A stretch of DNA of 58,673 bases, counting the filler, from Jimgerdemannia flammicorona (Eukaryota), in assembly GCA_003990765.1 (NCBI GenBank). It is 2 parts of 2 records of this genome, joined end to end, with 100 filler letters (N's around TTAATTAATTAA, not from the genome) between each part and the next. Parts side by side here need not be neighbours in the genome. Positions count along the whole stretch, not along the records: positions 1 to 29,291 come from RBNJ01000506.1; 1 more part is not named here. One strand, 5' to 3'. The position numbers and the translations under genes are program-made. Every line of letters begins with the position of its first letter. Position 1 is the first letter of the stretch. The notes beneath the pieces are model-generated. The model worked only from the letters and a program-made list of their open reading frames with translations, did not search any database and was not told the origin of the DNA. This document shows positions 1-58,673 of the stretch, in pieces.

Positions 1-9
1 AAAAAAAAA

Positions 10-1881
10 GATGTTGGGAGGGGGGGCCCAATTACTGAGAACAAAATAGCAAGAGAGCATCTCACCATAATCTTTAAAGAAGATGGCAAGGTCAAGAGCA
101 TGACAAAAGCATGTGAGATAAGCCAGATCAGTGAAGGAGAATTGTGAGGGAGTCAGGGGAAAAACAAAGCAAAGACCCAAGGATAAGGCAAAGACTTGAA
201 GGAGAGAAAGGGGGCAGTCAGCCAAAGAGAAAGGAGGAGACAAAAGTGTTCCAAGAGAAGAATAGACCTGAAAATTTGGGACGAGCAACTGGGAAAGACG
301 AAGGGGGGACAACATGAGGAACCACTCAGGGCACACCAGAAGTGATGATGGAATCCAAGAAGAGACATGGACACTGTGGGAGAACTACATCAGGGGGAAG
401 TTTAAGAGTGGGAGGCCTTCCCCTTCCCTCTGACTTTTTTTGAAGGCAGTGAACCCGATGAACAAGAGTACACCCCATCAGAGTGCCCAACCTTGCGGCT
501 ACAGGCTTTCATGCAGCCCTTATATTCAGGACCATGGGTGGAGATAGCAGAGGAGGAACTGGCAGAGGAGACCAAAGGCAAGCAGGCAGCTGAAGGGGCA
601 GCAGCGTGAGGAACACCACCATGAGGACAGATGGACTTGGCCAGGTGCCAGTAGGTATGGTGGAGGTGACCAGAGCAGATAGCACAAGGCCAGGCCCCGA
701 CAGAGTGAGAACCAAGTTGGTGGCCATGCTTGGGGGCAGGGGGAATGAAGGAGGAGGCCTTGCCAGAGGAGGGAGACAGGGAAGAGGCTGATGAAGCTTG
801 GTTGGGCTTGGCAGGGGTCTTGGCGGGGGTCTTGGAGAGGGCCTTAGCAGCAGCAGCAGCGAAGGAAACAGATCTCAGCACAGGCAGCAGTGTGAGTTTC
901 GGCACAAATGGCCTTGGAGACCGAAACCTCAGGAGAGACAAGCAGGGGAGCAGTGGCGGCAGTGCGAGCAGAAGCAGTGGCATGTGATGACTCCTGCTCA
1001 TAAAGGTGAGTGATGAAGGAAGTGCCGGTGAGGAGGAAGCTATGCATAGCATCAATGTCAGTGGTGATAGAAGGAACCTTGTGAATGGTGAAGCCACACA
1101 AGGGGCAGCATCCAGGAGGTGGGAGGAGGCAAAGGCCACAAAAGTGGCACAGGCATGTTGGAAGGAGGCAAAAGTGGTGGCGGCAGAAGCAGCAGCAGCA
1201 TCAGCAGTGGCAAGCTTGGCAGTGGCAGTGGCAGCATGAACCTCTTCAGAGAGAGCTTGGCAGCGGGCCTCAGGGAGAATGGAGTAGTGGATGGCAGGCA
1301 GAGCAATGACGTTGACATCATGGTGGAGATGAGCCTCCTTGGCAGAGAGGGCAAGAACTGACCAGAAATGAGAGAGGAGCAGATGACCAGAAGGACGAAG
1401 GTCCAGGGGGAGGGAAAGAATGGTGGATGAGACATAGGTCTCGAATGAGACAGTGGTGGGGGTAAAGGCAAGGGGAGGAGGAGAAAGAATCTCATCCATG
1501 AGCTCATCGATGAGGACAGAGGCCCCGAGGGCAGGTGGTACAGCAGAGGAGGAAGAAGGCCCAGCAGGAGCCATGGGAGTGAACTCAGAACCAGTGTAAA
1601 AATGAATGGAAGATATGTGGAAGAATATATATAAGGGAGATGAACAAAGAACATAACCGAAATTGCATCAGCCATTTATTGCAATATAAAAACACAGTCC
1701 TTATATATAAAATACAACATCCCAAAAGAGAGGATACACCACAACTCAGGGTGAACTGAATTAGGAACCATATGACTGCTGGAGATAAGTAGAGATAAGA
1801 GGGGAGCCAATCCCAGTTGCAGGATAAAAATCACAAACAAATACAAACAAAACAAATCCAAATTGGGATTAAAAAACATCC
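10..1881 (-). mobile_element. Penelope-like element family 1, inverted arm (pLTR part, ORF1 and RT N-terminus)
   Basis: Reverse complement of about 2033-4100, minus the LINE insert; differences are mostly transitions. Ends at an A-run at 1-9. Confidence 0.9.
402..1574 (-). CDS. PLE family 1 ORF1 (390 aa, Ala/Ser/Pro-rich, Cys/His-rich C-terminus), open but hypermutated
   Basis: ORF MAPAGPSS...; homologous to 2537-3692 and to the relic at about 22180-23530; lies directly upstream of the PLE RT. Confidence 0.7.
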   Translation of the reverse strand: MAPAGPSSSSAVPPALGASVLIDELMDEILSPPPLAFTPTTVSFETYVSSTILSLPLDLRPSGHLLLSHFWSVLALSAKEAHLHHDVNVIALPAIHYSILPEARCQALSEEVHAATATAKLATADAAAASAATTFASFQHACATFVAFASSHLLDAAPCVASPFTRFLLSPLTLMLCIASSSPALPSSLTFMSRSHHMPLLLLALPPLLPCLSLLRFRSPRPFVPKLTLLPVLRSVSFAAAAAKALSKTPAKTPAKPNQASSASSLSPSSGKASSFIPPAPKHGHQLGSHSVGAWPCAICSGHLHHTYWHLAKSICPHGGVPHAAAPSAACLPLVSSASSSSAISTHGPEYKGCMKACSRKVGHSDGVYSCSSGSLPSKKVRGKGKASHS

Positions 1882-2148
1882 TTACCCACTCCGGGGTCTT
1901 GTACTTGCTCTGGGGTCTCGGCCTTACTCTGCTCCCCTCCACTGCCTTTGGCCCCTTACTTCACTAAGACTCACTGCAGCTTGCTCCATTTCGGCCTCAC
2001 CCCTCACTTGTGCTCACCCCTCTGGGGTCTGTGGATGTTTTTTAATCTCGATTTAGATTTGTGTTGTTTGTGTTTGTTTGTGATTTTGATCCTACAACTG
2101 GGATTGGCTCCCCTCTTATCTCTACTTATCTCCAGCAGTCATATGATT

Positions 2149-2221
<73 letters not shown>

Positions 2222-2570
2222 GTCCTTGGACTTCCTTTCTTTATTATGCCCATCTATCTCATATAAATACAGTGACCCCTCCTCCTATCCGATCCCCTTA
2301 GGGGGGCCCCCCACCCCTACCCCTTTCCAATGAAGTCATGTGATTCCTAATTCAGTTCGCCCCAAGTTGTGGTGCATCCTCCCTTTTGGGACATTGTATT
2401 TTGTATATAAGGACTGCGTTTTTATATAGCAATAAATGGCTGATGCAATTTCAGTTATGTTCTTTGTTCATCCCCCTTATACACACTCTTCCACATATCT
2501 TCCATTCGTTTTGACACTAGTTCTGGTTTCGCTCCCATGGCTCCTGCTGGGCCTTCTTCCTTCTCTGCTA
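1866..2570 (+). repeat. 5' pseudo-LTR of PLE family 1, interrupted by a LINE tail
   Basis: Direct repeat of 5710-6212 once 2149-2345 is removed. Confidence 0.85.
2149..2333 (-). mobile_element. Severely 5'-truncated LINE (3' UTR plus ~68-nt poly(A))
   Basis: Reverse complement resembles the LINE 3' end at about 17065-17190; 12-bp TSD AGTCAT(A/G)TGATT at 2137-2148 and 2334-2345. Confidence 0.9.
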
Positions 2571-3692
2571 TACCACCTGCCTTCAGGGCCTCCATCCTCA
2601 TTGATGAGCTCATGGATGAGGTTCTTCCTCCTCCTCCCCCTGCCTTTACCCCCACCACTGTCTCATTCAAGACCTATGTCTCGTCCACCATTCTTTCTCT
2701 CCCTGGACCTTCATCCTTCTGGTCATCTGCTCCTCTCTCAGTTTCGGTCAGTTCTTGCCCTCTCTGCCAAGGAGGCTCATCTCCACTGTAATGTTGATGT
2801 CATTGCTCCACCCACCATCCACTACTCTGTTCTCCCTGAGGCCTGCCGCCAAGCTCTCTCTGAAGAGGTTCATGCCGCCACTTCTGCTGCCAAGCTTGCT
2901 ACCACTGATGCTGCTGCTGCTTCTACCACCACCACTTCTGCCTCCTTCCAACGTGCCTGTGCTGCTTTTGTGACCTTTGCCTTCTCTTGTCTCCTGGATG
3001 CTGCTGCCTTCTGTGGCTTTGCCATCCATGAGGTTCCTTCTGTCACTGCTGACATCAATGCTGTGCATCGCTTCCTCCTCATCAGCACTTCCTTTGTTGC
3101 TCACCTTCATGAGCAGGAGTCATCACATGATGCTGCTTCTGCTTGCGCTGCTGCCACTGCTCCCCTGCCTACCTCCCCTGAGGTTTTAGTCTCCAAGGCC
3201 ATTCATGCCGAAGCTCGCACTACTGCCTGTGCTGAGGTCTGTTCCTTCGCTGCCACCACTGCCAAGGCCCCCTCCAAGACCCCTGCCAAGACCCCCGCCA
3301 AGCCCAACCAAGCTTTGTCAGCCTCTTCTCAGTCCCCCTCCCCTGGCAAGGCCTCCTCCTCTGTTCCCCCTGCTGCCAAGCATGGCTGCCAACTTAGTTC
3401 TCGCCCTGTCAGGGCCTGGCCTTGTGCTGGCTGCTCCGGTCACCTCCACCATGCCTACTGGCACCCAGCCAAGTCCATCTGTCCTCATGGTGGTGTTCCT
3501 TGTACTGCTGCCCCTTCAGCTGCCCACTCACCTTCAGCCTCCTCTACCAGTTCCTCCTCTGCCTCCTCCACCTGTGCCCCTGAATGTAAGGGCTGCACGA
3601 AAGCCTGTGGCCGCAAGGTCTGGCACTCTGATGGGGTGTGCTCCCATTCATCGGGTTCGCTGCCTTCAAAAAAAGTCAGAGAGAAGGGGTAG
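2537..3692 (+). pseudogene. PLE family 1 ORF1, frameshifted near 2700
   Basis: Track ORFs 2537..2791 and 2436..3692 together reproduce the 402..1574 protein. Confidence 0.8.
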
Positions 3693-5716
3693 ACCTCCTG
3701 CTCTTAAACTTCCCCCTGGCATGGTTCTCCCCCAGTGTCCCTGTCTCTTCTCGGAGTCCATTGTTGCTTCTGGTGTACCCTGAGTGGTTCCTCATGTTGT
3801 CCCCCCTTCACCTTTCCCTGTTGCTTATCCCGAATTTTCGGGTTTATTCTTCTCTTGAAACACTTTTGTCTCCTCCTTTCTCTTTGGCTGACTGCTCCCT
3901 TTCTCCCCTTCAAGTCTTTGACTTATCCTTGGGTCCTCGCTTTGTTTTTCCTGAGATTCCCTCACAATTCTCCTTCACTGATCTGGCTTGTCTCACATGC
4001 TTTCATTGTGCTCTTGACCTTGCCATCTTCTTTAAAGATCATGGTGAGATGCCCTCTCACTATTTTGTTGCCAGTGATTGGGCCCCCCCTTCCAACATCT
4101 CTTCATACTGTGTATTCCTCGACATGGCTTGCTCATTGTCTGTTCCTGGATCACTCGCTCTTGCTTGATTTCAGACCATGCCATGCATACTGCACTTAAA
4201 TCAGTCAAGCAATTGCCTTTACATTTGCTCACAGTCACTGATAAGAATCAGGGTTTTGCACTTATTCCTAAGTTGCTCTACCTTGATGGCCTTTCTGCCC
4301 TCCTTCAAGCTGTGGCTTACAAGCCTAGTGCTCTTGAATTGGATGAGGTTCTCACTCTTCTTCAGGTTTCTCTGTCTCATGCCAGATCACTTTCGGATTC
4401 CCCATTTGCGAATCCCATTTTTAACTCTTCCAGGACTCTTTGTCCTCCCTTGATATTTGTCTTCCAGTTTTCTTTGCCCTTCCTAAGGTTTACAAGCCTC
4501 CTTTGGCTTGGTGTCCCATTATGGCTACTTATAATTCCCCCACCACTGAGATTTCAAAGTGGTTATCCCGCTTCTTCCTCTCCTGGATGGCTCTCTTACA
4601 ACACCATCTTGGGCCTGAGTATACTATTCTTCATGATACTCAGGAGCTCGCCCTTCTCTGCTCCACCATTGTACCTGTTCACCATTTTTCCCATTTGGCC
4701 TCTGGTGATTTTTCCTCCTTCTATACTGCTATTCATTTTGATGAGATCAACGATTGCCTTCACTTCTTGGGTTCTATTGTCTTTTCTTGGATTCTCTGGT
4801 CTCGTTGGCTTCCATTGTTGAGCTTATACTCCTTGTCTGTGGCACTAATTATTTTGAGTCAGCCCTTGGCTCCTTCCACCAGACTTCTGGTATTGCCATA
4901 GATATGAATTGTACCTCTACCCTTGCCAATCTCGTTGGCCTGGCCCATGAACTTCATGTAATACATGATCTTTTTTCACCTCTTTCTATCACATTCCAGG
5001 CTGGGGATATCTTCTTTTGCTGATACATCGACTACTTTATTGTCTTTGCTGTTGCTGGTATTGATATTCCTATTGTGTTTCTGAGCATCTACCCTCCCCA
5101 CCACTCTATTACTTGGGTGTGCAATCTGACTAGTATTCCCTTTTTGGACCTTTCCATTTCTCTTTCTCCTTTTCGAACTGTTGTTTATTCTCATTTTCCA
5201 CATTCTCAACAGTTCTCTGACTTCTTGTCCAACCATCCTCATTGCACTCTTCTTGAATGTATTTGTGGTGAGGCTTGTCATCTTGTACTATGCTGCTCTC
5301 ATCATTCTGATTGGGTGTCTGCTGTTTGGGTTCTTGGTAACTTCATGGTCCATTGTCATGCCTACCCAATTTCTATCATTCGTGATCTGCTTGCTTCCGT
5401 TGAATGGTCTGTTTGCTCTTCCCTTCTCTCCCCTCTTTATCCACCTTCCCTTTCCTCCCTCCCCCCTTACCCTCTCCATACTCCCTCTTCTTTCCCACTC
5501 CCAATTCTCATTGTACCATTCAATCATACTCACTGGGTTGCTCAATGCCCTGATACCATCCTGTGCTCTTCTCTTTCATGCTATGGACTTTCATCTCTTT
5601 CTCAACACCCTCTGATTGCTCATTTGTGTCTTCCTTCTGTTTCTTCTTTAATCCATCACTCTTGTTTTGCATTTTCATCACCTTCCGGTGCCTCTGGCTC
5701 TGCTGGAGAGGATTAA
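3693..5716 (+). pseudogene. Penelope-type reverse transcriptase with stops and frameshifts
   Basis: Motifs LSLGPRF, TDKNQG, LPKVYK..W(R)PI, GDFSSFYTAI, GIAI.MNC..TLANL, (R)YID, FLDL and a thumb region with AYP; TAA stop at 5714-5716. Confidence 0.9.
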
Positions 5717-6212
5717 AAAACATCCTTGCCCCCTCCGGGGTCACATGCTCACTCTGGGCTTTCAGCCTTACTCCGCTCCCCTCTGCTGCCTTCGGTCACT
5801 CACTTCACTCAGGCTTACTGTGGCTCACTCCATTTCGGCCTCACCCCTCACTTGCACTCACCCCTCTTGGGTCTGTGGATGTTTTTTAATCCCAATTTGG
5901 ATTTGTTTTGTTTGTATTTGATTGTAATTTTTATCCTGCAACTGGGATTGACTCCCCTCTTATCTCTGCTTATCTCCAGCAGTCATGTGGTTCCTAATTC
6001 AGTTCATCCTGAGTTGTGGCACATCCTCCCTTTTGGGACATCATATTTTGTATATAAGGACCACATTTTTACATGGCAATAAATGGCTGATGCAATTTCA
6101 GTTACATTCTTTGTTCATCCCCCTTATACATGCTCTTCCACATGTCTTCCATTCGTTTTGACACTGGTTCTGGGTTCGCTCCCATGACTCCCAATGGGCC
6201 TTCTTCCTCCCC
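5710..6212 (+). repeat. 3' pseudo-LTR of PLE family 1 (16-bp inverted repeat, GC-rich core, TATA-like motif, AATAAA, ORF1 start)
   Basis: GGATTAAAAAACATCC at 5710-5725 and GGATGTTTTTTAATCC at 5877-5892; GTATATAAG at about 6050; AATAAA at about 6078. Confidence 0.85.
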
Positions 6213-6924
6213 TCCTCCACCCAGAGATAACAGGAGCTATTAGCAAGAAGACAGAAGATATCCTGTCTGAGACAGAACCAAAGTCCAATACTTCCACAGT
6301 GGACAATTCAGGCACTATACCACTGAATGTGACAACAAAATAAGTGACTGAAGGGACTCAGAACCACCAAACCAAAGGAATGACACTCAGTACAAGAAGA
6401 CTGAAGCCCATCTAGTTGAAGATTTCGAGAAAGTAAGCAACAGTGAAGTCTACAGTGACCTAGACTTGTACCCTACTAAGGTTACTACTTAGAAAACAGT
6501 CTACCCAGCAGAGAAAAGAAAGAGATCTGTAGGAAGACCATCAAGGAATATCAGGAGAAGAATCATTCAAGAAGAAAACAAAGAACATGAGGAGGAACAA
6601 GTAGACCTCTCTGGACTCCTTCACCTTTTGTCTCTAAGACAAATGAGCTGCTACCAGAGGGCTGCTCCAAAGCCCAAGAAGAAGTACACCCTGAAGACCA
6701 TGCCCAGAGACATCTACAATAAAGCCTGGCAGAAGATTCAAGAAGCCAAGATGGATGTCCCCCTTCTGCAGTTCCTGTAACTAACACTAGCTAGTGTTCA
6801 AAACAAATTACTGAGGACCACCAGGTCAAGCACTGGCCAAGTTCTGATCCCACAATAAGAGCCAGCTCCCAATCCCATCTAAGCTGCAGAAAGACATGTC
6901 AGCACCTATATACATGGAGATATT

Positions 6925-11398: not shown

Positions 11399-13440
11399 AT
11401 GGCAAACAACAAGCAATCTGGGGTATATACTGAGCAGGGTGGCTCTAGTATGTTCAACTGGCAGCAGGTGGGGAGAGGCTCTGGTCTGGGGGGTGGCATG
11501 AGGGGGCTGTTGGCAGGAGGGCAAGAAGGAGGAGGAGGTGGCAGTAGAGGACAGGGGTCTGGGAGGGCGAGCTTCGCAGAGACAGTGAAGGGGAGGCAGC
11601 AGATGACAGGGTTGGAGGGTTGGCTGAGAAAAGGCAAGGAGATGGAGATGATAGTGGTATGCAGGGGAGGAGTACTGGGGGGTGAGAGCAGTGGAGCTGG
11701 GGGAGTAGTGGCTGGGGGGAGTGTGATGGCTGATGGTGACAGGACTGCCAATCTGAAAAAAAAATCCAGATGTGATGGCTGATGGCATAGCTGAGCAACT
11801 GAGGCTTGGAAGACAGGGAGATTTGGCAGATAATATGATAGGCCTGGCAGTGGCACTGTTACTCAAGAAATCAATCTCAGTATTTATGGTGATGTTGTGC
11901 TTCCGGGGCCTGGCAGTGATAGCGAAAATGGTGCTGGGGCTTATTGCTAAGCAGGTGGCTGGAGTAGCATCCATGAAGTTCCTGAAGAGATTGGAGGGAG
12001 TAGAGGTGGGTTTTGAGGAGGCTGAGTCTCTGGAGGAAGTACTGAAGGTTGGATTGATTGTTGGAGAGGTGTGTGTCCTGATGACATGCTGTCTGAAATG
12101 GGACCCCAGGGTGGTCCAACTACTGGAGAAAGGAGTGCCCATGGTGATGGCAATGGAGATGAGAAGGAGAGTTGAGGAGGTCATTGTGGAGTATGGTAAG
12201 ATAGTGAATATCAGGTTCAGGGTCTGGGAAGGGACCTCACTCAGAACTGGAGATGTGGATGTGTGTGTTCGGCTGGTAGCGAAAGAAGCTACAGAGAAGA
12301 CAAGGGACTGGCATTTGGTGATGGTCTGGGGGGTGATCTTATGCAAGGTGACATGGGTAAAGGGGAGTGAGGAGGAGGAAGAGAACTTGCTGGAGGCACT
12401 AGAAGAGCTGAGTGGAGCAGTGGAGCAGCAGGCAAAGGCTTAGAGGGCTTTTGTGGAGTTGACAAACTTGGAGGTGGTGGATGGGAAGAGGATTAGAGTG
12501 GACAAGGGGCAATGGGAAAGAGCTCAGGGCCATAAACATCAAAGGAGCTACTGGCTAAGATGGAAAGTCGACCACAAAAGGAGGCAGGTGGAATGGTGGA
12601 ACTGGGGGGTGCCAAGACAAGTGTCTGGGCCAGCAAGAAGGGTGGGAGTGCAGAGAAAGGAACAGAGGAGGACAGGAAAGCAGCTAGTAGCAACCCATAT
12701 ACTGATGGTATGTTTGAGGTCTTGGAGGATGACTGGGAGGGATCACCTACCCCTACTCCTCTCATCAGGTATGGGCCAGCTTCCTGGAGCAGGGCAAGAG
12801 AGGATGTGTCAATGAAGGGGGCACAGCGTGTGCAATTTGGTGTTCCTGAGGTAGCAAATGAGGGTCAGGTGGTGGCAGTTGGAGAGGAGGAATTGGTGGA
12901 TGTCCCAGAGGTGTGGGATGAGACTGCAAGTGCTGGGGCTGATACCACGATGTTGGATGGTGGAAGACCAGTGAGCCCAGGAGGGAAGAAGGTAGGGAAT
13001 CTACTTTGGATGTTCAGGATGATGAATAACCTGATGGCAGAAGAGCTGGGAGAGGTGGACTTGAGGTTAATAAGTGATGAGCAGTGGGCATGGGTAATGC
13101 AGAGAGAGGGTGTAGAGTTGGCATTGAAGGCAGAGACCCTTGTGGTATATCTGGAGGAGGAAGGGTATGAGGTGGATAAGAAGCAGGAGGCTGAACTAGC
13201 AGGGCTTGCTGGTGAGAGGGCCAAGTACTGTTGGGCCAAGTGACATAGATTGCAGCTCTGGCAGGAGGCCTGCTTGGAGTACCGAGAGGAGTTTGAGGAG
13301 AAGGCAGATGGGGAGATGAATGAGTTGTTGGCTGGATTGGAGGCTCAAAGGGCTGAAGAGGACGGCAGTGAGTGCAGAACATAATCTAGACATGGCACAG
13401 AAAGAGATAAACTTGAAGCAGTAGGGATGGACTGGATAAA
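11399..13440 (+). pseudogene. LINE ORF1 (Gly-rich N-terminus, RRM-like core, acidic coiled-coil-like C-terminus)
   Basis: SFAETVKG and KGVP...EYGKIVNI...WEGT..RTGD; conserved in the copies at 24980-26400 and 33050-35030. Confidence 0.75.
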
Positions 13441-13456
13441 CACACCATACTTCAAT

Positions 13457-16400
13457 ATGAATAGTACAACCAACATTTTTTCTTTGAATGTAAATAGGTT
13501 ATGAGGTACTTCTTGATGAAGGAACATTTTTACTTGGCTGAAGGGATTGAAGGCCGATCTCTTCCTCTTGCAGGATGTCATGTGTGAAGATGTTTTGGAT
13601 AAACTGGAATAGACGAAGAAATGGAGAGGTGAGGTAGTTTGGAAGGGCAAGATTGGGATTCTGGTATGGAAAGGCAGAGGGGAGATAAGGGATATGCAGA
13701 GCTGGGGGAATAGACTGGTCTGGGGTGAGTGGATATGTACAGGATGGGAGCCAATCACAGTGGGCTCTTGTTATTGCCCTGCTGTACAAGGAGCATGTGG
13801 ACTGGGTGAAAGGTCTTCAAGAGAGTGGGATACTCATGGAGGTGGGGGTGGATGTGCTTGGTGGGAACTTTAATATGGTTCGAGATGTACTATTAGACAG
13901 GACAGATAGAGGATAAGGAGCTGAGGGTCGGAGTGGAGGGCTGGTGGTATGGGAGGAAGTGGAAAGGTTGAGTGCTCTGGTGGATGTGGGTAGGAAGTGC
14001 TGGGGGGATAGGAGGATATACACACATTGGGGAGGGGGCTTGGGGATGGGAATTGATTGGATTCTGATGGCCAGCTGCTGGGGCTTAGATGTTTGGAGAT
14101 CACTGGAGGTGGAATGGTGTCCTTGGTCAGATCATTGGGGGATTTTCAGACAGGGACAGTTTGGGGGGAGTGGGGATGGGCCTGGACATTGATACCTCAA
14201 TTCCTCCTTGTTAGAAGATAAGATCTGGTGGAATGGGTGGGCTGCAGACATTCAACTACAGGTAGAGTATTGGAGACAGGAAGGGGCCCCAGTTGGTGTT
14301 TGGTGGATGAGGATGAAGGAGATAGCTAGGACATACTGGAGTGAGGCTAGCAAGAAGGCTGGGAAATAGAGGAGGCAACTAGTGAGATGGGCTTCTAGTA
14401 GACTGTCTAGGCTCTTGGGAGATTGGGTGAGACTGGTGACACTGAAGGGAGAGGAGAATTGGAGGTCAATAAGGGTGAAAAAGGAGGTTAGTGAACTTCA
14501 ACAGGTGTTGTGGGAGGAGGAAGAGGCGAGGGTGCAGAGTTTGGCAGTACAGCTACATTGGCAGGGTTTGGAAGAAGAAAAGAGGCCCTCTAAGTATCTC
14601 ACGAGAGCCCTTCGGGCAAGGAGGGTACAACAAAGGTGGGAGGGGGTGCTTAACTCTGATGGTATTCTGGTTCATGTTATTCAAGATGTTCTTGGATCTT
14701 TAAAGGTGCACTGGAGTGGATTGTGGAGTGAGGAGGAGGGTGGGGTATATGCTGATGCTATTGGCCATACACTAGAAGATTGGCACCCCCCATGAGTAGA
14801 GGGGATGGGTGACTTGGTGTTGCCATTCCAAGAGGAGGAGATCCACCAGGTTCTTGCTGTGACAATGCTGGGTATGGTGCCTGGAGAAGATGGTTTGCCC
14901 TGGGACTTCTGGAAGAAGATGGTCAGGATCTCAGGAGTACTGGGTGAGATGATGGCATTGTGTGATCTTATTCTACAGACAGGGAGATGGGGGGGGAACA
15001 GGTTCTGGGGTTGGTGACATTGCTCTACAAGAACAAAGGAAGGCAAGAGGACTGGAAGAACTGGAGGCTGATTATGCTCCTGGATATGGACAGAAAGTTG
15101 GTTACTAAGGTGGTGGTTGCAAGGCTACAAAAGGTTGCCCAATAAATCTTGTGCATTGAGTAGAGGGGCTTTGTAGGGGGATGGCTCATTAGGGATAGTA
15201 CAGCCTGGGTACATAGAGTTATTGAAGGGGCATGAGCTTGTGGATTGGATGGGCACCTGGTCTTTTTGGATGAGGAGAAGGCTTATGACTGAGTGAGGTG
15301 AGTCTGGATGGTGAAAGTTTTGGATAGGACTAGGATTCTGCATCAGTTCTGGTCAGCAATGGTCAGTCTACTGGAAGAGAGTAGGGCAGCGCTTATGTGT
15401 AATGGACATTGAGGGGTGGTTTTTCCCCTGGATAGGGGGGTGCCCCAGGGGGACCCATTGTCCCCCATCCTGTATGCCCTTTCTCTGGAACCTCTACTGG
15501 ATAGAATCAGGCAGAAGATAGTGGGGCTCTCTATCTTTGGCATTGGGTGGAAGGTAGGGGCCTTTGCAAATGACATGGTGGTCAGACTGGGATCGATTGC
15601 TGATGTTGAGGAGCTTAAGGAGACAGTGGAGTGGTATGAGGAGACCTCTGGAGCAAGACTTAAATGGCATAAGTGTGAAATAATGGTGTTAGGCAATGGT
15701 CTGGTGGGCAGGGAGGTTATTTGAACAATCATCCCTGCTGGTGAGGCAGTGCAGTCCTTGAGTATCTATTTATCAGTATATGGGTAAGTACTACCCAGGC
15801 TTTGGTGGGAGCAGTGGGTTGGAATCTGGGGGGAGGCCCTGCAGAGTTGGGGGGGCTGTCAATTGTCTCTGGCAGGGTGTGTTTCAATTTTGAACATCTA
15901 CTGGCTGCCGAAGTTATAGTATCTGGCATATCATCTGGACTTCTCATCCTGGGTGGTGAAGAGGCTGATGAAGCTAGCCAAGGGATGGATCTGGGCAGGA
16001 AGGAGGAGTCAGATAAGCTGGGAAGTCTTGTCCTTACTGGTGGCAAGTGGTGGACTGGGACTGGTAGACTTTCTGAAGAGGCTACACTGCTTGAGGGTTT
16101 GGTGGTTGAAGAGGGCCATGGAGTTGAGAGGGGGTGGTTGGGTTCCCCTATTGCAGAAGGTTTGGGAGAGGAGGTCCTCGCCAAGAGGCTCAACTGGAGA
16201 TCTCCTATCTTTGGTTGGACTTCAGAACATTAATCAACTGTGATACAAAGGCTTCTGGTGGGGGGTGGTAGAGGGGGCACACCACATCAGAATCCATTGG
16301 CAGGGGAATGAAGAAGAGGTGGATTGGGACCCAGCAATGTAGAGATGGGACCAAGTACTGCTGGGCAGCATTCCATTACTTGAGTTTGACATTAGTGATG

Positions 16401-17040
16401 AGATAGATCGCCAGAGGGGACCAGGCCAGAATCTGTGGCCCAGTGGTTGGCAAGATATAGGAATTGGCAAGAAGTGAGACTAGCGTAGCATTTGGGCATA
16501 GAGTGCTGAGGTGAGAAGATGGATGCTGCCAAAGTACTGAGTGACTTGGTGGCGCATGCTGAGGAGGAATGTCATGCTCAATTACTGCTTGAGTCACCTT
16601 GTTGAGAGAGGTTGCTTTGACTGCAAGGAGTGCTATAATGTAGGACAGGAAGGGGGTTATGTGCAGATGCCTAAATATTGGCTAGGGGAGTATGAGGTAC
16701 TTAGTGACTTTGGCAGACTATTGGGGATTGTTTGGAGGTAAGATGTAGGGGAGCTGGTGTGCAGGTGCAGTGGGAGGATTTGAGAGACAGACTGGTGGGG
16801 GGGGTGGGAAAGGAATAGCTCATGCTAGGCTGGGCTCTGGTCATTTGGGTAGGGTTGGCCAGTCACTTGTTATTTGTTTTCAAGGATGGGAGGAGACTAG
16901 GCTTGGAGGTCTGGCTGCTGCAGTAGCATTGCCTTATGGAAGACACCTTGATGGGCTGGTGGCTTGGTTGGGGGATGCAGGGTGGTCAGAGGCATCGATT
17001 GGTGGAGAAAATTTGTAGGCAGAGTGGGAGAAGGGTAGGA
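13457..17040 (+). pseudogene. LINE ORF2 (APE endonuclease, RT, C-terminal Cys motif)
   Basis: FSLNVN, LFLLQD, GGNFN, IDWIL, SDH; PGEDGLP, KNWRLIMLL, GVPQGDPLSP, AFAND; CFDCKE. Confidence 0.92.
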
Positions 17041-17640
17041 GTAGTGGGGGAGAAGGTGGTTTTTGCTTGGGTAGGGGTGGGGAGGGGCCCCCCTATGGGG
17101 ATCAGGTAGTGGGAGGAAGACTGTATACTTAACAATAGAATGGTAATAAATGGCAGAGTCTAAGTGACTATAAAAAAAAAAAAAAAAAAAAGCCATTCAA
17201 AATGATGTTTGCCAAGAAAACCAGAACTACTGATCATGAGAACCTTGAACACCTCCTCAAGAAGACAGAACAGTTATATAATCAGGCCCAAGTTCTACCA
17301 AAGCACAAGAAAGACCAAAGTAGTACTATGACCAGAAATAGAAGGACCAGAAGATCAAGATTGGAGATCAAGTACTATTTTGGAGAAGCATGATTGAAAC
17401 AAACTTTGCTGCCAAATTGGAACCCAAATGGGAAGGACCTTATCTTGTATACAATATCTGAGGAACCAGCATCTATTTAAGAAGCATAGATGGATGGACC
17501 CTCAGGACACCAGTACACATCAACTACCTCAAGATATACCTCTCCTATCATGAATAAGACAATTGACCAGTGCCTTTAGACCCTTGTTCTGAGTTCATTC
17601 CAATCACTCCTGGTTTTCCTTCCACAATTCCAACAAGCCA

Positions 17641-19694: not shown

Positions 19695-22600
19695 TATCTA
19701 GAAGAAGATGAGGAAGGTGCACTGGGGGCTATAGAAGGAGGAAGGGGGGCAAACCCACAGCCAGAGTCAAAGATGAGATGAGATATTTGGAAAGGCAGTA
19801 AAAAGGATAAGCAAAGAACAGGACAGAAATTGCATCTGCAGTTTATTACTGCTCAAAAAGAGTAGTCCTTATATATAAATGTAATATCTCAAAAAGGAAT
19901 AACATACTAAAATATCAAGTGAACAATATTAGTAACTAAATTTTACATAAGGAACTAATTCCAGAGTGAGAATAAAAATCAAAATAAAACAAATCCAAAT
20001 TGAGATTAAAAAACATTCACAGACTTTAGAGGAGGGAGTATAGAGGTTGAGTGAAGTGAGTCATAGTATATAAGTCTGAGATAAAGCTGAGAGGCCAAAG
20101 ACAGCAGAGGGGAGTAAAGTAAGACCAAATATCTTGGAGCAAACATGAGATCTTAGAGAGGGCCAGAATGGTTTTTAATCTTCTCCAGTAGAGCTAAAAA
20201 CACCCAAAGATGATGAAAATGTAAAATGAGAGTAATGAGTTAGAGAAGAAATATATGAAAGGTATGATCTAGTAATGAGAGAATATTGAGAAAGAGAGAA
20301 CAGGCCATAATACAAAGAGAAGAGCACAAAACAATATGAGAGTATTGTGTAGCTCAGCAAGCTTAATCAAAGAGTATGATAATAATTGAGAAAGAGAATA
20401 AAGAGAAGGTATAGAGTGGGTAAGAAGGAAAAGAGAGAAGAGAGAGAGAGTAAAGTAGAGAGTGTAGAGAGGAGTATACAACAGACTATTTAATACAGAC
20501 AAGCAGATTATAATTAATAGAAATAGAGTAAGTAGAGTGATACATCAAAAAATTACTAAGAACCTGAACAGCTAATATACCATCAGAATGATGGAGAAGT
20601 AAAAAGCAAGATATTGAACTTTACTATAAATATATTTATAATAGTATGATGGAGGTAATTGAAATGATAGTCAGAAAACTGTTGGGAATAGAGAAACTTA
20701 GAATAAACAATAGTTTGGAAAGGAGAAGTAAAATAGAAAGGTCCCAAAGATAAATATTGACCAATCCAAGCATCCAGTTGATAGAGTGATGGAGAGAGTA
20801 GATACCACAAAATATGTTAGAGATATCTAGGCCAGAAATAGCAAAGATATTAAGGTTATTAATATAATGGCAAAAAGAAGATATCACTAGTTTGAAAAGT
20901 AATAGTGAGTAGTAAAGAAGAATCATATAGTATACAAAGATTATAGATCAAGTCAATAAGGTTAGCAAGAGTAGGGATACAATATATTTCCATAGTGATA
21001 TCAGAAATCTGATGATAAGAGCCAATGACTTACTCAAAGTAGTTAGAGTAGTAGATGAGAAGTATGAGCTCAATATATTTAGGCCAAAGGAATAGAGAAT
21101 CTAAAGGATAAATAATAGAACTGAGGAAGTAAAGGTAATTATTAATTATATTAAATATATAATAGCATAAAAGAAGAGTAATTACCAGAGACTAAATAGG
21201 AAAAATAAGTAATAGACATAATAGTGAAACAAAGAAGAGTGAGCTCCAGGATATTACAAAGAATAATATACTTAGGTCACAGGCAGTGTTGAAGAAGTAC
21301 TATCTAAGAGAGGAAGAAATAGAATAACTATTTTGAAACCTCAGTAGTTGATAAGTAAAATATAGTAGTAATGGGATATTAGGCCAAAGTAGACTTATGA
21401 ACTTTTGAAAGAGTAAAGCAAACCGGAAGATGACTATTTAGTAGGAATAAAGAATTTAAGAAGAAAGTAAAAATAAGAGATATAATTGAGAAATCTGAAA
21501 GTGAGAATATATGAGCCAATTCATCCTGAAGAAGAGAAAGAATCTGATATAATCCAAGAGTATATAACTTGTAAGCTAAGGCACAGAGGAGGGCTAAAAT
21601 ACCATCAAGATATAGTAATTGAGAAATAAGGAAACAATCTTAATTCTTTCTATAACTATGAGAAAATATAAAGGTAATTGCTTTGCTAATTTTAGTACCA
21701 TATATACAGCATGGTCTGAATAAGTAAGAGTGAATTGAAAATAAGCAAGCCATGTCTAAAAATATATAGTTTGAAGAGATATTGATAGAGGGGGCCCAAT
21801 TGCTAGAAACAAAATTATGAGAGAGTATCTCAGCATGATCTTCAAAGAAGATAGCAAGGTCTAGAATATAATGAAAATACTAAGACAAGGCAGATTGACA
21901 AGGAAAATTGTGAGCAAGTTACCAGAAAATTTAAATAAGAGCCCTAAGCAAGTGGAATACTTGAAGAAGAGAAAGTGAGCATTTAGCCCAAGAAAAAGAG
22001 AGAGACAAAAGAGCTTTAGATGAAGTGTAAACTCGAAAATTCAGGACAAGTAACTGGAAAAGACAAAGAGAGCCAAAATGAGAAACGACTCAAAGTATAT
22101 CAGAAGTGATAATAGAATCTGAGTAGAGACAGAGATATTGTAGATGAACTAAGCTGGGGAGGAGTTTAAGAGCAGGAGGTCATTCACTTTTATCAGACTT
22201 TTTTAATAAGAGTGATATAAATAAGTAAGAGCATATGCTATTAAAATACAAGACCTTCTGGTGGTAGGCCTTGGTATAGACCTTGTTCTTAGAGATATAA
22301 GTAGAGAGAGAGCAAGATCTAGAGAAGACAGAAGATACTCTAGAGAGAGAATAAAAGTGAGAGCAAGCCAAGATCTTGGAGGAAAAGGAGGAGACAGGAG
22401 TAGCAAGATGAGAGTAGTCACTATATATATAAGTAGTCTTAGTAGAGTAATAGTAAGTATAATAGAGGTGGTCAGAGCAGACAGTATAGGATCAGGAGCT
22501 AATAGAGTGAGTACTAAGAATGTAACTATATATATTTGAGAGCAGTTGAAGTCTTAGAGGTAGGCAAGAGTGAGTATAAAGAGGCTGACAAGATCTTTGC

Positions 22601-23434
22601 AAATATGTGAGATAGTGAGGACTTGGCAGACTTGGCAGTAATATTAGCAAAAGAGATGCAAACCAATGCCCTTAGAGATGAAGATCTTGAAAGTTGTTGG
22701 AATAGGAGCTGTAGAGACAGAGTAAACTGTGGAGGTAGTATGAGAAGCCTCAGACTCATAGAAGTAAGTGAGAAAGGATCAGCTAGTGAGCAAGAAGTAA
22801 TATATAGCTTCAATATTAGCAGTAGTAGAGAGGATCTCATTGGTAGAGAAACTATGAAATAAAGTAGTATCAATAAGACAGAAGACCATAAAGACTACAA
22901 AAGTGATATAGGAATTGAAGATGAAGAGAAGAGTAGCAGAGATAGCATCATATATAGTATTAGTGGTATCAGTCTTAATAGTGATAGATGTGTTATAAAT
23001 CTCTTCAGAGAAGGCATAATGGTGTTCCTCAGTAAGGAAAGAAAACTTGATTGTAGGCTGAGCAATAGTATTAATATTATGATAAAGATAAGTTATCTTA
23101 GAGAAGAGGACAAGAATTGAGAAAAGAGAGGGTATCTAGACAGACAAAGATCCAGAAGAATAGAGAGGATAGTAGATAATATATAGGTGTTAAATGAGAT
23201 AGTAGTAGAGATAAAGGTGAGAGAGACAGCTGCAGGAGGGTCATCAGTGATGCTTAGTGGAGAAAATTTGTGGGTATAGTGAGAGGAGAGTTATAGAAGC
23301 AGATAGTAAGGGTCTTCAAGTATGAGAGTGTGGGGGGAGAGGACCCTAGGGAGATTGGGTAGGGGCTGAGTAGTGGGCTGGAGTACTGTATTTATATTTA
23401 ATAAACTGGTAATAAATAGCAAAGTCTAAGAGAA

Positions 23435-23470
<36 letters not shown>

Positions 23471-23535: not shown

Positions 23536-24609
23536 GAGGATACTTTGTTAGAATATTGTTATATAGTTCTGGAGAGATTTTCTGAAAATTCTAGAGACAA
23601 TTTTCTTTAGTTTAAGATCAATTTCATATGGAGTAAATTCTCTATACTTATTGATTTCATGATTGGCTAATATCTCAATCAGAATTTTCCTTATTTTAGA
23701 AAGTTCAGAAATTAAGATCAGCTTAGTTGAATTAGTATATTGCTATAGACAATATCTAATTAGAAATTTTTTAGAATTAGTTAGAAGTAGGATCTAATAT
23801 AGTACAGATTTACTTAAGAGTAGTTTCTAAGTCATTAAATAGATTTATTCACTATTTGTTATATATTAGCTAATACTAGAAGTAGTGTGTGAAGAAATAT
23901 TAATGTAGAGGATTATTTATGCTCAGGTTATCTGTATTTTTGTCTGAGTTTTAGAGGTTTGAGAGAGACGGTATATATACTAATAGGAGATTATCTAGAC
24001 CTGACTAAATATAGTTAGCACTTTAATACTTAAGGAATCTGAATATAGTTATATAGTATAAGTTGAAAACTGATATGTCAAGAGATCTACTAACTGATGA
24101 GTCAGATTATTGTTACATAATACTATCTAATTTAACTATAATAATAACTACTATACTATTTATAGATTTATCAACTATCTGAATATTTGTCAATGAGTTT
24201 AATATTAATAATATTATCTCTGATAAAGTAGTCATTTAGGAAGAATGGTTCTTAGATTATATCTTCCTGTTTATTTATATAGAATTATATTAAATTATAC
24301 TGATTATCTCATAGCAAAGTGTCCTGCACATGAGGAGGCTAACATGAGATGAATAGTGTTCTATATAAAATGAATCTAATGTGGGACATGGGTTTGGCTC
24401 AAAGGAAGCATACGCTTCTGAAGGCCTGCCAATCACATTCATATGCAAAGAGGCCGGGCGCACATTTATTGTTCCAAAGGGGGATGGGTGGGAGGGGTAT
24501 ATGAAATCGATTGATACGAATTACTAATGACGATTGCTAGAGTATGTTGAGGGAAATGTGTGGCCGCTACCTAACTCTTGGGCATGCGGTTAGAGCTCGG
24601 GCTAGCTAA

Positions 24610-24781
24610 GGTAGGGTGCAGAAAGCGATTGAAACTGACTAAGCTAAGATGGTGGATTGCATGATTACGTTGCATGAATGTTTAAGTGCATGGTAGGGTG
24701 CAGGAAGCGATTGAAACTGACTAATCTAAGATGGTAGTTGCATTGCATGATGAATGTTAGATGCACAAGTGTTAAGTGCAA
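24610..24781. repeat. Two-copy ~82-90 bp tandem duplication
   Basis: GGTAGGGTGCAG(A/G)AAGCGATTGAAACTGACTAA(G/T)CTAAGATGGT at 24610 and 24692; both units end TTAAGTGCA. Confidence 0.9.
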
Positions 24782-24979
24782 TGGCCACTTTGCTGCATTT
24801 TGAACTATGTTCACAACTATATAATAGTATTATCTGTCTCATACTAGATATAGAAAAGAGATGCTTTATCTTTACTTTTATCAGATTTACTATAAGTATA
24901 CCTTTAGTAAGTTATAGTGCTATATATAACAGAGTTATAGTATGCTAGAGATTGTTTTTCATATTACTCATACTTCAGT

Positions 24980-39892: not shown

Positions 39893-40002
39893 ACTTCCTC
39901 CTGAATAGGTGATTCATCCCTGAAGTATCCTATTCACTCAAACTCCCAGGCTTCTACAATTTGTATCTCCTTGTACTGTGTGATCTGCACTATTACATTC
40001 TT

Positions 40003-41575: not shown

Positions 41576-41582
41576 GGTGATT

Positions 41583-45670: not shown

Positions 45671-45672
45671 GT

Positions 45673-54420: not shown

Positions 54421-56486
54421 AGCTGCAATCTCAGACTACTAGTAATACTGTACAAAACTCTCCCAAAACTTCACACTCTCTTAGCCAATGTTCAGGTATT
54501 TGTACCACTCCCCCCTCTTGAGTAATGTCTATGCATTCCTTATACTCAAACATACTATCTACTACCAAGTGCTCTGACCAATAGTTGAGTATCACATTCT
54601 GCCTAAGAAATCTCCACCATATTACTCAGAACTTGTAGAGAAGCCACTACATCACCTTCTTGCTCTAAAGTCAAATACTATTCTAGTCCCACTCCTTACC
54701 AATCTCTACTCTTTACTATACTTTAGGCCATATGTCCCCCCCAAGTCTCTACATAAATTCTATTCCATTATTAAGCTGAAAATCCTCTACCAATATATCT
54801 TCCAGCAGTAGCTGGGACTAGCTCTACATCTGTGGTCCACAGTCCTCCTCTCCCTTATCACCCCTCTACTGAAGTCTAATTCATCTTGCACTATTTACCA
54901 CTCCCTACCAAAAACCTTTGTAACATATCCTCTTGCTCTCATTTATGACCACCATTGCAAGCAGGTCACCAGTCACTCTACAAGGAGAGTACCAGACTTC
55001 CCACACCCTCTGTATAAGTGGTACCCTCTTCCAGACTCTTAAATCACTCACTTTCTTCAACCACTATACTCTTAGGCAATAGATGCTTGGTAAAGTCAAC
55101 TAAGCCCAGTCTGCCTCTATTGACAGACAAAGTCAGAATCTTCCAGCCTATCTGACTTCACTGTTCAGTCCAAATCTATGATCTCACCATCTTCAGAAGT
55201 CACCTGACCACTCATGCTGGGATATCCAGTGATACCCCACATACATATCACAGCTTTGGCAGCCAATTTACATTCAGCACCATCACTCTTCCTACCAAGG
55301 ATATATGCTGACCACTACATCTCAAGAGAATATTCCCCCTACTAGTAGCTGCTGTTCCCACCATATATATAGCAGAAGGGACCCATATGCTAAAAAGTAG
55401 ATCCCCAAGTACTGAACTAGTTCTTCTGCTGGAACCTTATTCCAATCATATTACTGCCAACTATTCTGCCACCTAGCATCAGAGTCTCACATTTGTACCA
55501 GTTGAGCTTAACATCTGAGCCCCTCTCATACCATTCCAAAGTCCTTCTTAATTTCTCTACATTCTCTAATAAACTCAGTCTAACTACTATGTCATTTGCA
55601 AAAGCCCCCACCTTCCTGTTAATTCCCAAAATATTGAAACCCCTAATTCAATACCAGATCCTGTCCAATAGGAGCTCTAAGTAAAGGGTATATAAGATGG
55701 ATAATAAAGGATCTCCTGGTGGTACTCCACAACCTAGCAGAAAAGTCACACTCTTGTACCCATTCACTACCAATACTGCTTGACTGTTTTCCAATAGACT
55801 GATTAATGATCTTCTATACTCTGGGAGAACTTCTACATATTTCAGCACTCCCTTCAAACCCTCCTCACTGTATTATATGCCTTCTCCTGATCCTGAAACA
55901 CTAACTGGCCATTAACTCTAGCTGCCTAGGCCTCTTCAATCACCTTATAAACCCAGGCAGTTCTATCTCAGATCAACTTTTTTTTTTTATTATAAAACGA
56001 GTAGATAATAGTGGAAGAGTTTAGAGCGAGATGTGATACTGTTACGGCGGATATGAAGGTCAGCGGTAAAAGGTCAAGCAGTTATAAAAAGCTTATGTGA
56101 ATTTTCACAACGGAACAGAAAGTGGAATAAAGTGTTTTCCGAAGCAAGGTGCAATTGATCTGCAACCCGCCCTCAGCACCGCAATGTACGGTGGTCTTTA
56201 TTCAATTTGAGAAACAAAGTTCAGGTAAACAAAGACACGGATCTAACCCCAGAATTCCGGAATCGGATAGGTGCATAAGTACCCGGACCTTGCCCCGATC
56301 CAAACAAAGGTCTGAATCGGGCTTCGTCAATCTATACACATGACAGGCCATTAAAAACCCGATATAGTAACAATCGGGAAAAGGTACCGGTCACGTGATC
56401 TAATGTTACACATAACATAAACAATGCCAAAAAACGGAACTAGACCAATGACGCAATATGTGTCATCACGTGATTGTCACTTATAG

Positions 56487-56686
56487 GTTTAAAAACCTAA
56501 AAATTATCGGCACCCGAAGGCGCAGGCATCAGGCCTAGAGCCTCGCGACCAGAGCGGAGTAGAGCCTCAGCACTGGAGCGAGCGAAGCGAGCGGAGGTAG
56601 ACAGGCATCACGGAGCGTAGGTACGCAGGCATCAGGCTTAGAGCCTCGCGCCGGAGGTTGTCCGGCGATTTTTCGCATTTTTAAAC
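56487..56686. repeat. Inverted-repeat-bounded GC-rich module with a 27-bp direct repeat
   Basis: Arms at 56487-56510 and 56662-56686; CGCAGGCATCAGGC(C/T)TAGAGCCTCGCG at 56521 and 56624. Confidence 0.8.
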
Positions 56687-56716
56687 ATCGCACGGCACAT
56701 ACAAGTGGTGCGGCCT

Positions 56717-58673
56717 TCAAGGAGGACTTATAGCGAAGCTGGTGTTTGAGATGGCATTAAGAATGGTAAAACCATTCTTCCGGGCGATGATTGGTCGTCG
56801 GGCAGTCGCAGGGAAACCAAAATGAAGCAAAGCGGTATGTAGAGTCTTGTCGGGTTGTTGATGTAGCCATCGGGCCATGTCATATTGGATGACAAGCGAC
56901 GGGGGAGGAAAAGCGGAGTGGGGAATGGGGGGGTGGGAAATAAGAGGAGGGGTGAGAAGTGAAGTTCGGACCTCAAGCCAATCAACCAAACTCAATTGAG
57001 TGGTTACAATATCAACAGGGTATCCTTTCCTGTGAATCAGGAAGTCGGCCAGAGACCGATACTCATCAAGCCAATCACGGCGAGAAGAGCAGAGTAGCGA
57101 AAGGCGGCGGGCCTCATTCACAATATATAGACGAAGTGTCTTCCTAGGATGATTGCTCAACCAGTCAACAAACTGAGTACTACGCAGGAACTTGACAAAA
57201 CGGCCTGTGCAGAACGGTGTGACTCAGATTTCCAGGTCTAAGTAATGGCACAGTCTGGTGGATAAGACTTCCCATTCGATACGATGGTGCGGAGGGTACA
57301 TAGCAGCAAAGATCGAGGCCAAGTCCATAATCGCAGGCGTAAAGATAATAAGATCATCAATATATCGGCGGAACTTTAGCTCAGCAATGATGGCTCAGCT
57401 AAGCAGATGATCGGGCGTTTGCAAGGTGTGCAACTCATGAGCAAAACCAACAAGATTGGCAAGATCCAGAGTACAGTTAGTGCCCATAGCAATACCAGTC
57501 ACAGAGCGGAAGGAACCGATGGCAGATGTAAATGTCGTATGAGTCATGACTATGCAGACAAGGCCGAGAACGGCTTCAAGCGGCAAAGAGCCAGGGGGGA
57601 AGGCCACCGTCAACAAGAAGGTGAGGCAGTCGATGCACTCATCTAATGTGATCCTGGTGTAGAAGGCGGCGAAATCTCCAGTAGCGACGTATAAGCAATC
57701 TGACACATCAAGGTAATCCGATCAAACCAATTGAAGCAGTTCAAGTATATCATGCAGAGGTGAATAATGGGAATAACCCACATTATGGCGCAGATGGGCC
57801 AACCACAGATGGAGAAAGCGAGATAGAAAACGTGAAATCTCGGTCGTGGGAGAGTTAAACGCTCCAACGATAGGGCGCCATGCCACGCGAGCCCCTTTGT
57901 GTACCTTGGGCAGAGCATGAAACACAGGTAGCTTACAATCATTGGGCTCCATGAGGTGTTCCCAAATCGGTATACAATTATGATTGCCGATGCAGAACTC
58001 GAGTAGACCAAGAAGGTCTAGCCTCACTGATTCCTTAATGTTATCAATCGTAGAGGGATCATTCACATACGCAGGATCGTGAAGGAGGGACCGAAGACCA
58101 TCAAGATAAAGAGCATGCAGTATAACGGCAAACCCCAGATTCTTGTCGGTAAGACAGACAGTGAAGTCATCATGAGTACGGATGCCTTTAAGAAGGCAGC
58201 GGAACTTCTTTGGTACAAGCGCACCAGACACATTCGTCGTGGGTCGGACAGCTTGATTTAAGGCAGCACTCATATGGAGTATAATTTGCATATTTTCCAT
58301 ACAGTGCGGCAGTCGCCATTTAGATGGCACCCAGGTGGAGATCTCCGGGACATTGTCAGGATCGGGTCACTCCATCCTTTCACCGGTAACATTCAGGTGA
58401 CACAAGATTTGGACAACACTTTCTGCGAAGTTTTTGGTGAAAAGCTACTATCAACATGGCGAGCAACGAGCATTCTGGTGGGCATGGCGGCCAGGGGGGC
58501 AGCAGTGCCTTCGGCTGGCAGCAGGTCGGGAGGAAAAGAGGAGATGGTCTGGGGATGCCAGGGCCGTCGGTGGTTGGAGGTGGCGCTGGGGGTGGGGGAA
58601 GAGGCGGACTGAGGCAGCGAGGTGGGGGGAGGACGACCTTTGCTGACAAGGTCAGGATGGGGAAGATGGCAGC
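56717..58673 (-). pseudogene. Penelope-type RT of family 2 (few TGA stops; no C-terminal GIY-YIG)
   Basis: TDKNLG, LPKVHK, WRPIVG, GDFAAFYTRI, GIAMG, RYIDD, YLDL, EARRL...KGYP; the ORF stops at 56717. Confidence 0.92.

Follow-up and report, generated by a model that had tools for sequence, protein, structure and literature searches.

How Penelope-like elements (PLEs) make their second strand, and why they so frequently insert as direct plus inverted copies, are still open questions. The only published clue to the second strand is a palindrome that recurs at the edge of the pseudo-long terminal repeat (pLTR) in animal families. In animal Penelope elements, palindromes of 18 and 38 bp were described at the 5′ ends of the pLTRs and at the inverted junctions, and read as self-priming. 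The inverted and the direct pLTR overlap by 15 bp, and the pLTRs include the first 12 codons of the open reading frame (ORF) (PMC3846280). Here we describe a decayed PLE family (Family 1) from the fungus Jimgerdemannia flammicorona, which carries at the corresponding place a split palindrome that may well have served the same end. It was found in a stretch of 58,673 nt from assembly GCA_003990765.1, hereafter the window, which joins parts of two records across 100 filler letters (positions 1–29,291 come from RBNJ01000506.1).

Other described PLEs bear on this comparison. A purified PLE protein starts reverse transcription within the ORF start and extends both target strands (2024, PMC11167929); therefore, two complementary DNAs (cDNAs) of the same sense would need a palindrome to pair. 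An inverted, 5′-truncated copy is frequently found beside the upstream pLTR (PMC8557442). A fungal Coprina element has two ORFs, a DKN motif and a reverse transcriptase (RT) with thumb, and is bordered by direct repeats of up to 422 bp (2026, PMC13159263). In the literature we found no account of a fungal PLE whose pLTR edge carries a hairpin or a split palindrome; supplements, perhaps with element maps, were outside this search.

Our evidence base consisted of three Family 1 copies, compared directly with each other, and one copy of a second family (Family 2), all within the window (Table 1).

Table 1 Coordinates of the PLE features in the window.
Feature	Position	Strand	Remarks
Inverted head-to-head copy	1..1881	−	pLTR, ORF1, start of RT gene; inner end is the left arm; continues past the window start
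Upstream pLTR	1866..2574	+	arms 1866–1881 and 2033–2048, core 1882–2032; interrupted at 2152–2333
ORF1	2537..3783	+	Ala/Ser/Pro-rich, no Pfam family; 3′ end approximate
Family 1 PLE RT	4189..5716	+	frameshifts and one in-frame TGA; DKN, LPKVYKP...PI, motifs B to E, thumb
10-mer ahead of left arm	5700..5709	+	CTGCTGGAGA; perfect complement of 5973–5982
Downstream pLTR	5710..6228	+	module, spacer with TATATAAGG (6051–6059), ORF1 ATG (6184), 11–15 ORF1 codons
Left arm	5710..5725	+	GGATTAAAAAACATCC; contains RT stop TAA (5714–5716)
Core (loop between arms)	5726..5876	+	151 nt, C 42%, T 30%; CTNCG at 5733, 5771 and 5790
Right arm	5877..5892	+	GGATGTTTTTTAATCC
Third Family 1 copy, strongly decayed	19733..23217	−	58–69% identity; module 20003–20181
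Family 2 counterpart	56480..56700	−	imperfect A/T-rich arms, CpG-rich core; begins ~27 nt past the RT stop
Family 2 PLE RT	56717..58366	−	DKNLG, LPKVHK...WRPIVG; CLTDKNLGFAVIL; stop 56717–56719

The inverted repeat is genuine, conserved within Family 1, and located directly at the end of the RT gene. An earlier note, made from the sequence alone, had described perfect 16-bp arms around a 151-bp core overlapping the RT stop codon, and both points hold. The arms at 5710–5725 and 5877–5892 are complementary at 16/16 positions with a gap of 151 nt, and the RT frame closes with GAG GAT TAA inside the left arm. A window-wide scan for inverted repeats with arms at most 400 nt apart listed 21 pairs, among which this was, besides the N run, the sole perfect pair with separate arms. 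An equivalent search, placed at random 150 times on unrelated loci, gave no inverted repeat with more than 13 matches. The arm duplex had an energy of −30.0 kcal/mol; of 2990 segment pairs drawn at random from the window, 0.23% did as well or better. The core between the arms is non-palindromic and uniformly pyrimidine-rich (72%). The whole arrangement recurs at 1866–2048 and 20003–20181. The note had further stated that the arms survive in the strongly decayed copy, where we located them at 20003–20018 and 20166–20181, complementary at 15/16 positions. The self-complementary arm ends that it pointed out (GGAT...ATCC) are present in the module at 5710 but read AGAT...ATTC in the decayed copy, a detail that is not conserved.

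The order of the Family 1 unit is ORF1, RT, module, promoter-like spacer, and the ORF1 start codon with 11–15 further codons. By blastn, direct repeats link 1866–2151 with 5710–5995 (85%) and 2334–2569 with 5981–6216 (88%). The decayed copy aligns on the minus strand at 22204–19976 with 3669–5919 (69%) and at 19898–19733 with 2380–2548, and a looser search carries it out to 23217. Similarity ends at the same place in the main and the decayed copies, 33–45 nt past the ORF1 ATG (6184, and 2537 upstream), the downstream pLTR ceasing to resemble the upstream copy at 6216–6228. Therefore, we delimit the pLTR as 5710–6228, from the RT stop to 11–15 codons into ORF1; judged by these borders, the module is its first 183 bp. 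The first in-frame ATG of ORF1 (2537) was placed with the help of the better-preserved inverted copy (402–1667, minus strand). Since this start codon lies within the pLTR, a working copy would require more than one unit, with the 5710–6228 stretch at both ends. The motif TATATAAGG, 125 nt upstream of the ATG, is a putative promoter element. A retroposed fragment with poly(T) interrupts the upstream pLTR (2152–2333), and a 15-bp duplication flanks it (2137–2151 = 2334–2348, both matching 1763–1777). Read on the minus strand, the fragment is poly(A)-tailed and related to the 3′ ends of repeats with long A runs at 16976–17204 and 23231–23470 (+), the latter adjoining the 5′ end of the decayed PLE copy. 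The 3′ border of the main element, at ~6228, adjoins another repeat.

Beside the upstream pLTR, at 1–1881, stands the inverted 5′ copy that is a frequent, not obligatory, hallmark of PLEs. By blastn, 6–1777 is the inverse of 2334–4103 (87%), and 1763–1881 the inverse of 2033–2151 (92%). Together these form an inverted repeat of at least 1.9 kb, whose innermost 16 bp are the arms at 1866 and whose axis is exactly one 151-nt core. The palindrome at the 5′ edge of the pLTR and the inverted junction coincide here, as they do in Penelope; the contiguous palindrome of 18–38 bp seen there has no counterpart, 151 nt lying between the arms. The two halves diverge by 8–13%, so the head-to-head copy is no assembly artefact. 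The left arm lies 3′ of the RT coding sequence both at 5710 and in the decayed copy and therefore belongs to the unit.

The palindrome was observed directly, as were its place, its conservation and the fact that the inversion axis falls on it; from these we infer a fold-back step. We give slightly better than even chances to the 183-bp module being the 5′ edge of the pLTR of an inactive, endonuclease-less (EN-less) PLE, with arms that form a split palindrome for fold-back self-priming. First-strand cDNA would copy the pLTR from its 3′ side toward the RT stop. The new 3′ end, complementary to the left arm, would then anneal to the right-arm complement that had been synthesized 151 nt before or, alternatively, to another cDNA, primed on the opposite target strand. 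After pairing, synthesis would continue on DNA, with the result that the copy would end at the pLTR edge and the second strand would be primed. A hairpin that stayed unopened would give two copies head to head around one core, which is exactly the arrangement seen at 1–4103. In yeast and in Tetrahymena rDNA, large DNA palindromes start from short inverted repeats through fold-back priming at broken ends, and the head-to-head event here may have taken place either on cDNA or on chromosomal DNA. We read the present case as that of the animal Penelope families (PMC3846280), except that a 151-nt loop splits the palindrome.

The pairing of the arms is conserved. Compared with the main copy, the decayed copy has C to T changes at 36% of sites and G to A changes at 43%, with A and T kept at 77–83%. 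Of its 16 arm pairs, 15 are still Watson-Crick pairs and one A:T pair is broken; among the five G:C pairs, two have turned into A:T through changes in both arms, and none has changed on one side only. In a neutral-decay simulation at the copy’s own rates, such pairing had a probability of 0.0017, or of 0.0085 if paired positions share a rate multiplier.

The left arm itself may have a history. The complement of CTGCTGGAGA, the 10-mer ahead of it, was present in 9 of 20,000 shuffles of the downstream 400 nt, and none of 391 control 10-mers from the RT gene has one. The final 26 nt of the RT gene (5700–5725) equal two separated pieces of the inverted pLTR, and over this stretch the RT has a C-terminal extension of 11 residues that is absent from P0002. 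The 26 nt look like a scar, in which an internally deleted inverted pLTR was fused to the 3′ end of the RT and fixed in the master copy. Under self-priming by fold-back, this segment would be the scar of an earlier event, now supplying the RT stop codon. The same two pieces would also be expected if left arm and 10-mer were remains of an old inverted pLTR with no role, the head-to-head copy having arisen through the general tendency of PLEs to insert in this manner. The pairing of the 10-mer is lost in the decayed copy, the A/T-rich arms decay slowly, and the palindrome is absent from distant relatives, all of which agrees with a role-less remnant. Yet the arms and the inversion axis match to the base, with exactly one core enclosed, the arms of the decayed copy are Watson-Crick paired beyond the neutral expectation given above, and palindromes recur at this position in unrelated animal families (PMC3846280). 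We consider it unlikely that the arms are such a role-less remnant.

The putative scar also bears on whether the module is a 183-bp foldback or miniature inverted-repeat transposable element (MITE)-type DNA transposon that has terminal inverted repeats of 16 bp and was nested in an ancestral element of this family. Its size and its terminal inverted repeats fit, but the RT stop comes from the left arm, which runs on into a 10-mer with a match in the pLTR itself. Further, the flanks (...CTGGAGA and CAATTTGG...) show no target-site duplication, the module occurs in the window only inside the three PLE copies, and Family 2 has a comparable stretch in the same place. Such an origin is very improbable.

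The stem could instead act in the sense RNA, as a 16-bp helix closing a pyrimidine-rich domain of the 3′ untranslated region and pLTR. The RT or the ORF1 protein might bind to it, or it might replace the missing hammerhead as a processing signal. The outermost arm pair is in agreement with this: it is G:C at 5710, G:T at 1866 (G:U in RNA) and A:U in the decayed copy, a series tolerated on the sense strand only. For the three copies, RNAalifold predicted 46 pairs, 11 of them changed on both sides; 92.8% of cells pair, and 41/46 pairs are kept in the decayed copy. None of 500 shuffles had as good a pair count, and slid controls gave 0–2 double-changed pairs. However, when neutral decay was simulated and the structure re-predicted each time, the 11 double changes compared with 8.1 ± 2.5 (P 0.15), the paired share was marginal (P 0.04), and pairs kept in the third sequence had P 0.02. 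Because this simulation removes most of the signal, we largely discount the RNAalifold covariation. The core alone folds like its shuffles (z 0.06; 100/200 shuffles fold as well), and the fold of the whole module (z −2.0; about −2 for both sense RNA and antisense DNA) is due to the arms. Folding and covariation, the checks suggested with the original observation, gave a divided answer: the arms show paired changes in the decayed copy, but the core shows no fold beyond that of shuffled sequence, and the wider covariation is near neutral. The indication of a structured core is weak. On the side of a sense-RNA role are also the hammerhead, not found in its usual PLE place, and CTNCG, the commonest gapped 4-mer in the Family 2 core. 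On the other side, no Rfam family matched, the cores of the two families share only short words (see below), and the RNA that an Anolis PLE needs to insert is located within the first 172 nt of the ORF and not at the 5′ edge of the pLTR (PMC11167929). On balance, we doubt that the stem works in the sense RNA.

The assignment to PLEs rests on the RT. As read in the window copy, its motifs include TVTDKNQGFALIP and LPKVYKPPLAWCPI besides LPKVYKP...PI. The N-terminal DKG/DKN motif and the thumb by which a PLE-type RT is recognized are both present, and the DKN motif occurs in both PLE families of the window. The 3′ part of the Family 1 RT frame, with its single TGA read as X (query P0001), was searched against 1.84 billion representative proteins and gave 27 relatives, the best with 42% identity and an E-value of 4e-56. 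RVT_1 was detected in 7 of the 12 relatives scanned, GIY-YIG in none of these 12, and no Pfam family matched the scanned ORFs of either PLE family in the window. P0004 aligns over 533 columns with an ORF carrying RVT_1 and GIY-YIG, TDKNLG falling on ADKGG; the GIY-YIG match of that ORF (22.0 bits) is slightly below the Pfam cut-off of 22.6. In tblastn, the Family 1 and Family 2 RTs match the same relatives. Protein-atlas neighbours of the RT were rotifer and nematode clusters with RVT_1 or HTH_animal, taken only as a lead. A GIY-YIG endonuclease is carried by the canonical EN+ clades of PLEs only, and a hammerhead motif in the pLTR is reported for all PLE clades but Naiads and most Chlamys. 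Rfam at gathering score gave no relevant match in the whole window, and no hammerhead was found at E-values up to 10 in 1500–6600 or 55900–56900; decay could conceal one in Family 1. We take the element to be an old, decayed and EN-less PLE. Indirectly, the fungal host, the DKN motif and the lack of a detected endonuclease domain indicate that it is probably Coprina-like.

Several other identities of the module or the element were tried and rejected. A known RNA family, hammerhead included, found no relevant Rfam match, and none of the six matches of the hammerhead core pattern CTGANGA...GAAA in the window lies in a PLE pLTR. Coding or read-through of the core was considered, as 121 codons are open after the stop; this is expected because the sequence is 72% pyrimidine, and Family 2 has no matching frame. 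A frameshift site at AAAAAAC in the left arm, which we take to resemble a slippery heptamer, would be positioned after the stop, with no downstream ORF. A DIRS-type element with inverted terminal repeats and an internal complementary region was first considered because of the complementary segments. DIRS-like elements have a Gypsy-like RT/RNase H and a tyrosine recombinase; here the RT proved to be PLE-type, and the 3.8-kb unit yielded no further Pfam domain.

The earlier note had also seen a CGNAG module (CTNCG on the sense strand) in the core. The three CTNCG positions it gave (5733, 5771 and 5790) are correct, but the enrichment is weak in this family and clear only in Family 2. Against dinucleotide shuffles, CTNCG is found 3 times versus 0.62 expected in the core at 5710 (P 0.01) and once versus 0.53 in the core at 1866 (P 0.44). 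Counting also the forms one CpG transition away, the Family 1 cores have 8–9 versus 4.1–4.5 expected (P 0.056 and 0.01). The body of the element is not enriched (3 versus 5.6). The strand bias follows from the 68% pyrimidine sense strand, and CGNAG is missing on that strand because of its 68–72% pyrimidine content. Most simply, the CTNCG sites are a by-product of a pyrimidine-rich, formerly CpG-rich spacer.

In Family 2, whose RT was matched by tblastn at 58354–56726 on the minus strand, the stretch 56700–56480, rich in CpG and in pyrimidines, has CTNCG 9 times versus 2.7 expected (P < 0.001). By eye, it also contains a 27-nt direct repeat (56521–56547 and 56624–56650). The same layout had been proposed for 56487–56686: the position after the RT stop and the richness in CTNCG stand, but the arms are not above background. 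Homology between the two cores was rejected, MAFFT aligning only A/T runs and CCTCCGG. They share 9 7-mers versus 3.1 expected (P 0.027), and unrelated coding windows reach 8–10. As far as these sequences go, the two families resemble each other here in position and composition, with no demonstrated common structure.

A metagenome scan returned 69 loci (L001–L069) with distant DKN-type RTs of 21–29% identity. Many of them have intact ORFs of at least 900 codons without an endonuclease domain, and a scan of 20 loci gave no Rfam family. Fifteen of the 69 contigs start and end with the same 97–372 nt at an identity of at least 99%, as expected from tandem arrays or circles collapsed in assembly. 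One locus, L037, has a 12/13 inverted repeat with a 149-nt loop, 7 nt past the RT stop (4588–4762), with a geometry as in Family 1; it is within the background distribution and missing from the closest relatives.

A number of observations weigh against self-priming by fold-back at the arms. Only one head-to-head junction was observed in the window, and a large inverted or head-to-head copy was present in 0/69 metagenome loci. Where the flank was long enough (38 loci), the top inverted repeat past the RT stop had 6–12 matches and was background-like, with 12 matches reached by 3/38 loci versus 4/150 background placements; because of this resemblance, the palindrome is not general to this RT group. 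The arms of Family 2 (9 bp + 6 bp) are imperfect, and their energy of −13.3 kcal/mol is matched by 31% of random pairs. Part of the survival of the Family 1 arms is mutational, since they are rich in A/T and such sites are slower to decay here. Unlike the contiguous palindromes that have been published, this one has a 151-nt spacer. The fold-back step itself is inferred. The telomeric repeat TTAGGGTTAGGG, the only repeat type tried, had no match in the window with up to one mismatch, and the arrival of an EN-less element at this site is unexplained. Coprina elements are typically terminal on chromosomes. Finally, EN-less PLEs of fungi and protists are said in PMC3846280 to be without the direct/inverted pLTR organisation.

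Some further features of the window were noted. The PLE sense strand is 68% pyrimidine, even across the long ORFs, and strand skew was seen in the regions 2000–6000, 12000–16000, 24000–28000 and 30000–34000. Three other repeat blocks have a GC skew of +0.4 to +0.5 or −0.4 to −0.47. The blocks at 12.7–16.3 kb and 25.7–29.2 kb are 71–75% alike and had no Pfam match. The N run at 29292–29391 is flanked by TTAATTAATT. A Ty3/gypsy element at 39408–45971 (−) has 300-bp long terminal repeats (LTRs) that are 93% alike and ORFs matching zf-CCHC, RVP_2, dUTPase, RVT_1, Integrase_H2C2 and rve. A copia-type element at 49342–54421 carries a Retrotran_gag_2 ORF and LTRs of 155 bp (91% alike). Short ORFs at 55417–55872 (−), just past the Family 2 PLE, resemble a non-LTR RT by eye (GVPPGDPLLSILYTLYLE..., AFANDIVV), without a Pfam match at E-values up to 0.1. 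An A run at ~55996–56006 separates them from the Family 2 PLE.

Family 1 extends the animal clue, as it has the same architecture in a fungal EN-less clade said not to show it. A single decayed locus is a pointer and not proof. For the complete genome of this fungus, the prediction is that junctions pile up on the arms. More broadly, EN-less fungal PLEs might carry a programmed fold-back site, a pLTR-edge stem with a CTNCG-rich loop in place of the hammerhead, that ends the first strand, primes the second, and also pairs two cDNAs from the ends of a chromosome break. We regard this generalization as speculative and rather unlikely; if true, it would explain the head-to-head insertions and how EN-less elements settle inside chromosomes and not only at telomeres.

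Among known systems, the large palindromes of yeast and Tetrahymena rDNA are similar in being giant inverted duplications with a unique central spacer and a short flanking inverted repeat; they arise by repair or replication at chromosomal breaks, unconnected to reverse transcription. As in the biochemically studied PLE, the 3′ end of inserted Family 1 copies is within the ORF start; unlike Family 1, that element has an endonuclease and a hammerhead, and its RNA signal is an AC-rich stem-loop 111–118 nt into the ORF (PMC11167929). With Coprina-1_Alen of Ascochyta lentis, Family 1 shares the fungal host, the lack of an endonuclease, DKN, RT and thumb, two ORFs of which the first is without a known enzymatic domain, and direct repeats of a few hundred bp. 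It differs from the Coprina clade (PMC13159263) in that its copies are without telomeric repeats in or beside them (window search), no hammerhead was found, and a head-to-head inverted copy is present. From the EN+ Penelope of Adineta vaga, Family 1 differs in its fungal host, in the lack of GIY-YIG, in a palindrome split by a 151-nt unique core instead of a contiguous one of 18/38 bp, and in an inverted copy of at least 1.9 kb instead of one pLTR. The same Penelope (Arkhipova et al. 2013, PMC3846280) is like Family 1 in that its pLTR, at the 5′ edge that follows directly on the end of the ORF, carries a palindrome, and in having a palindrome at the junction of the inverted copy and the direct pLTR with an overlap of ~15–16 bp, and a pLTR that extends about a dozen codons into the ORF.

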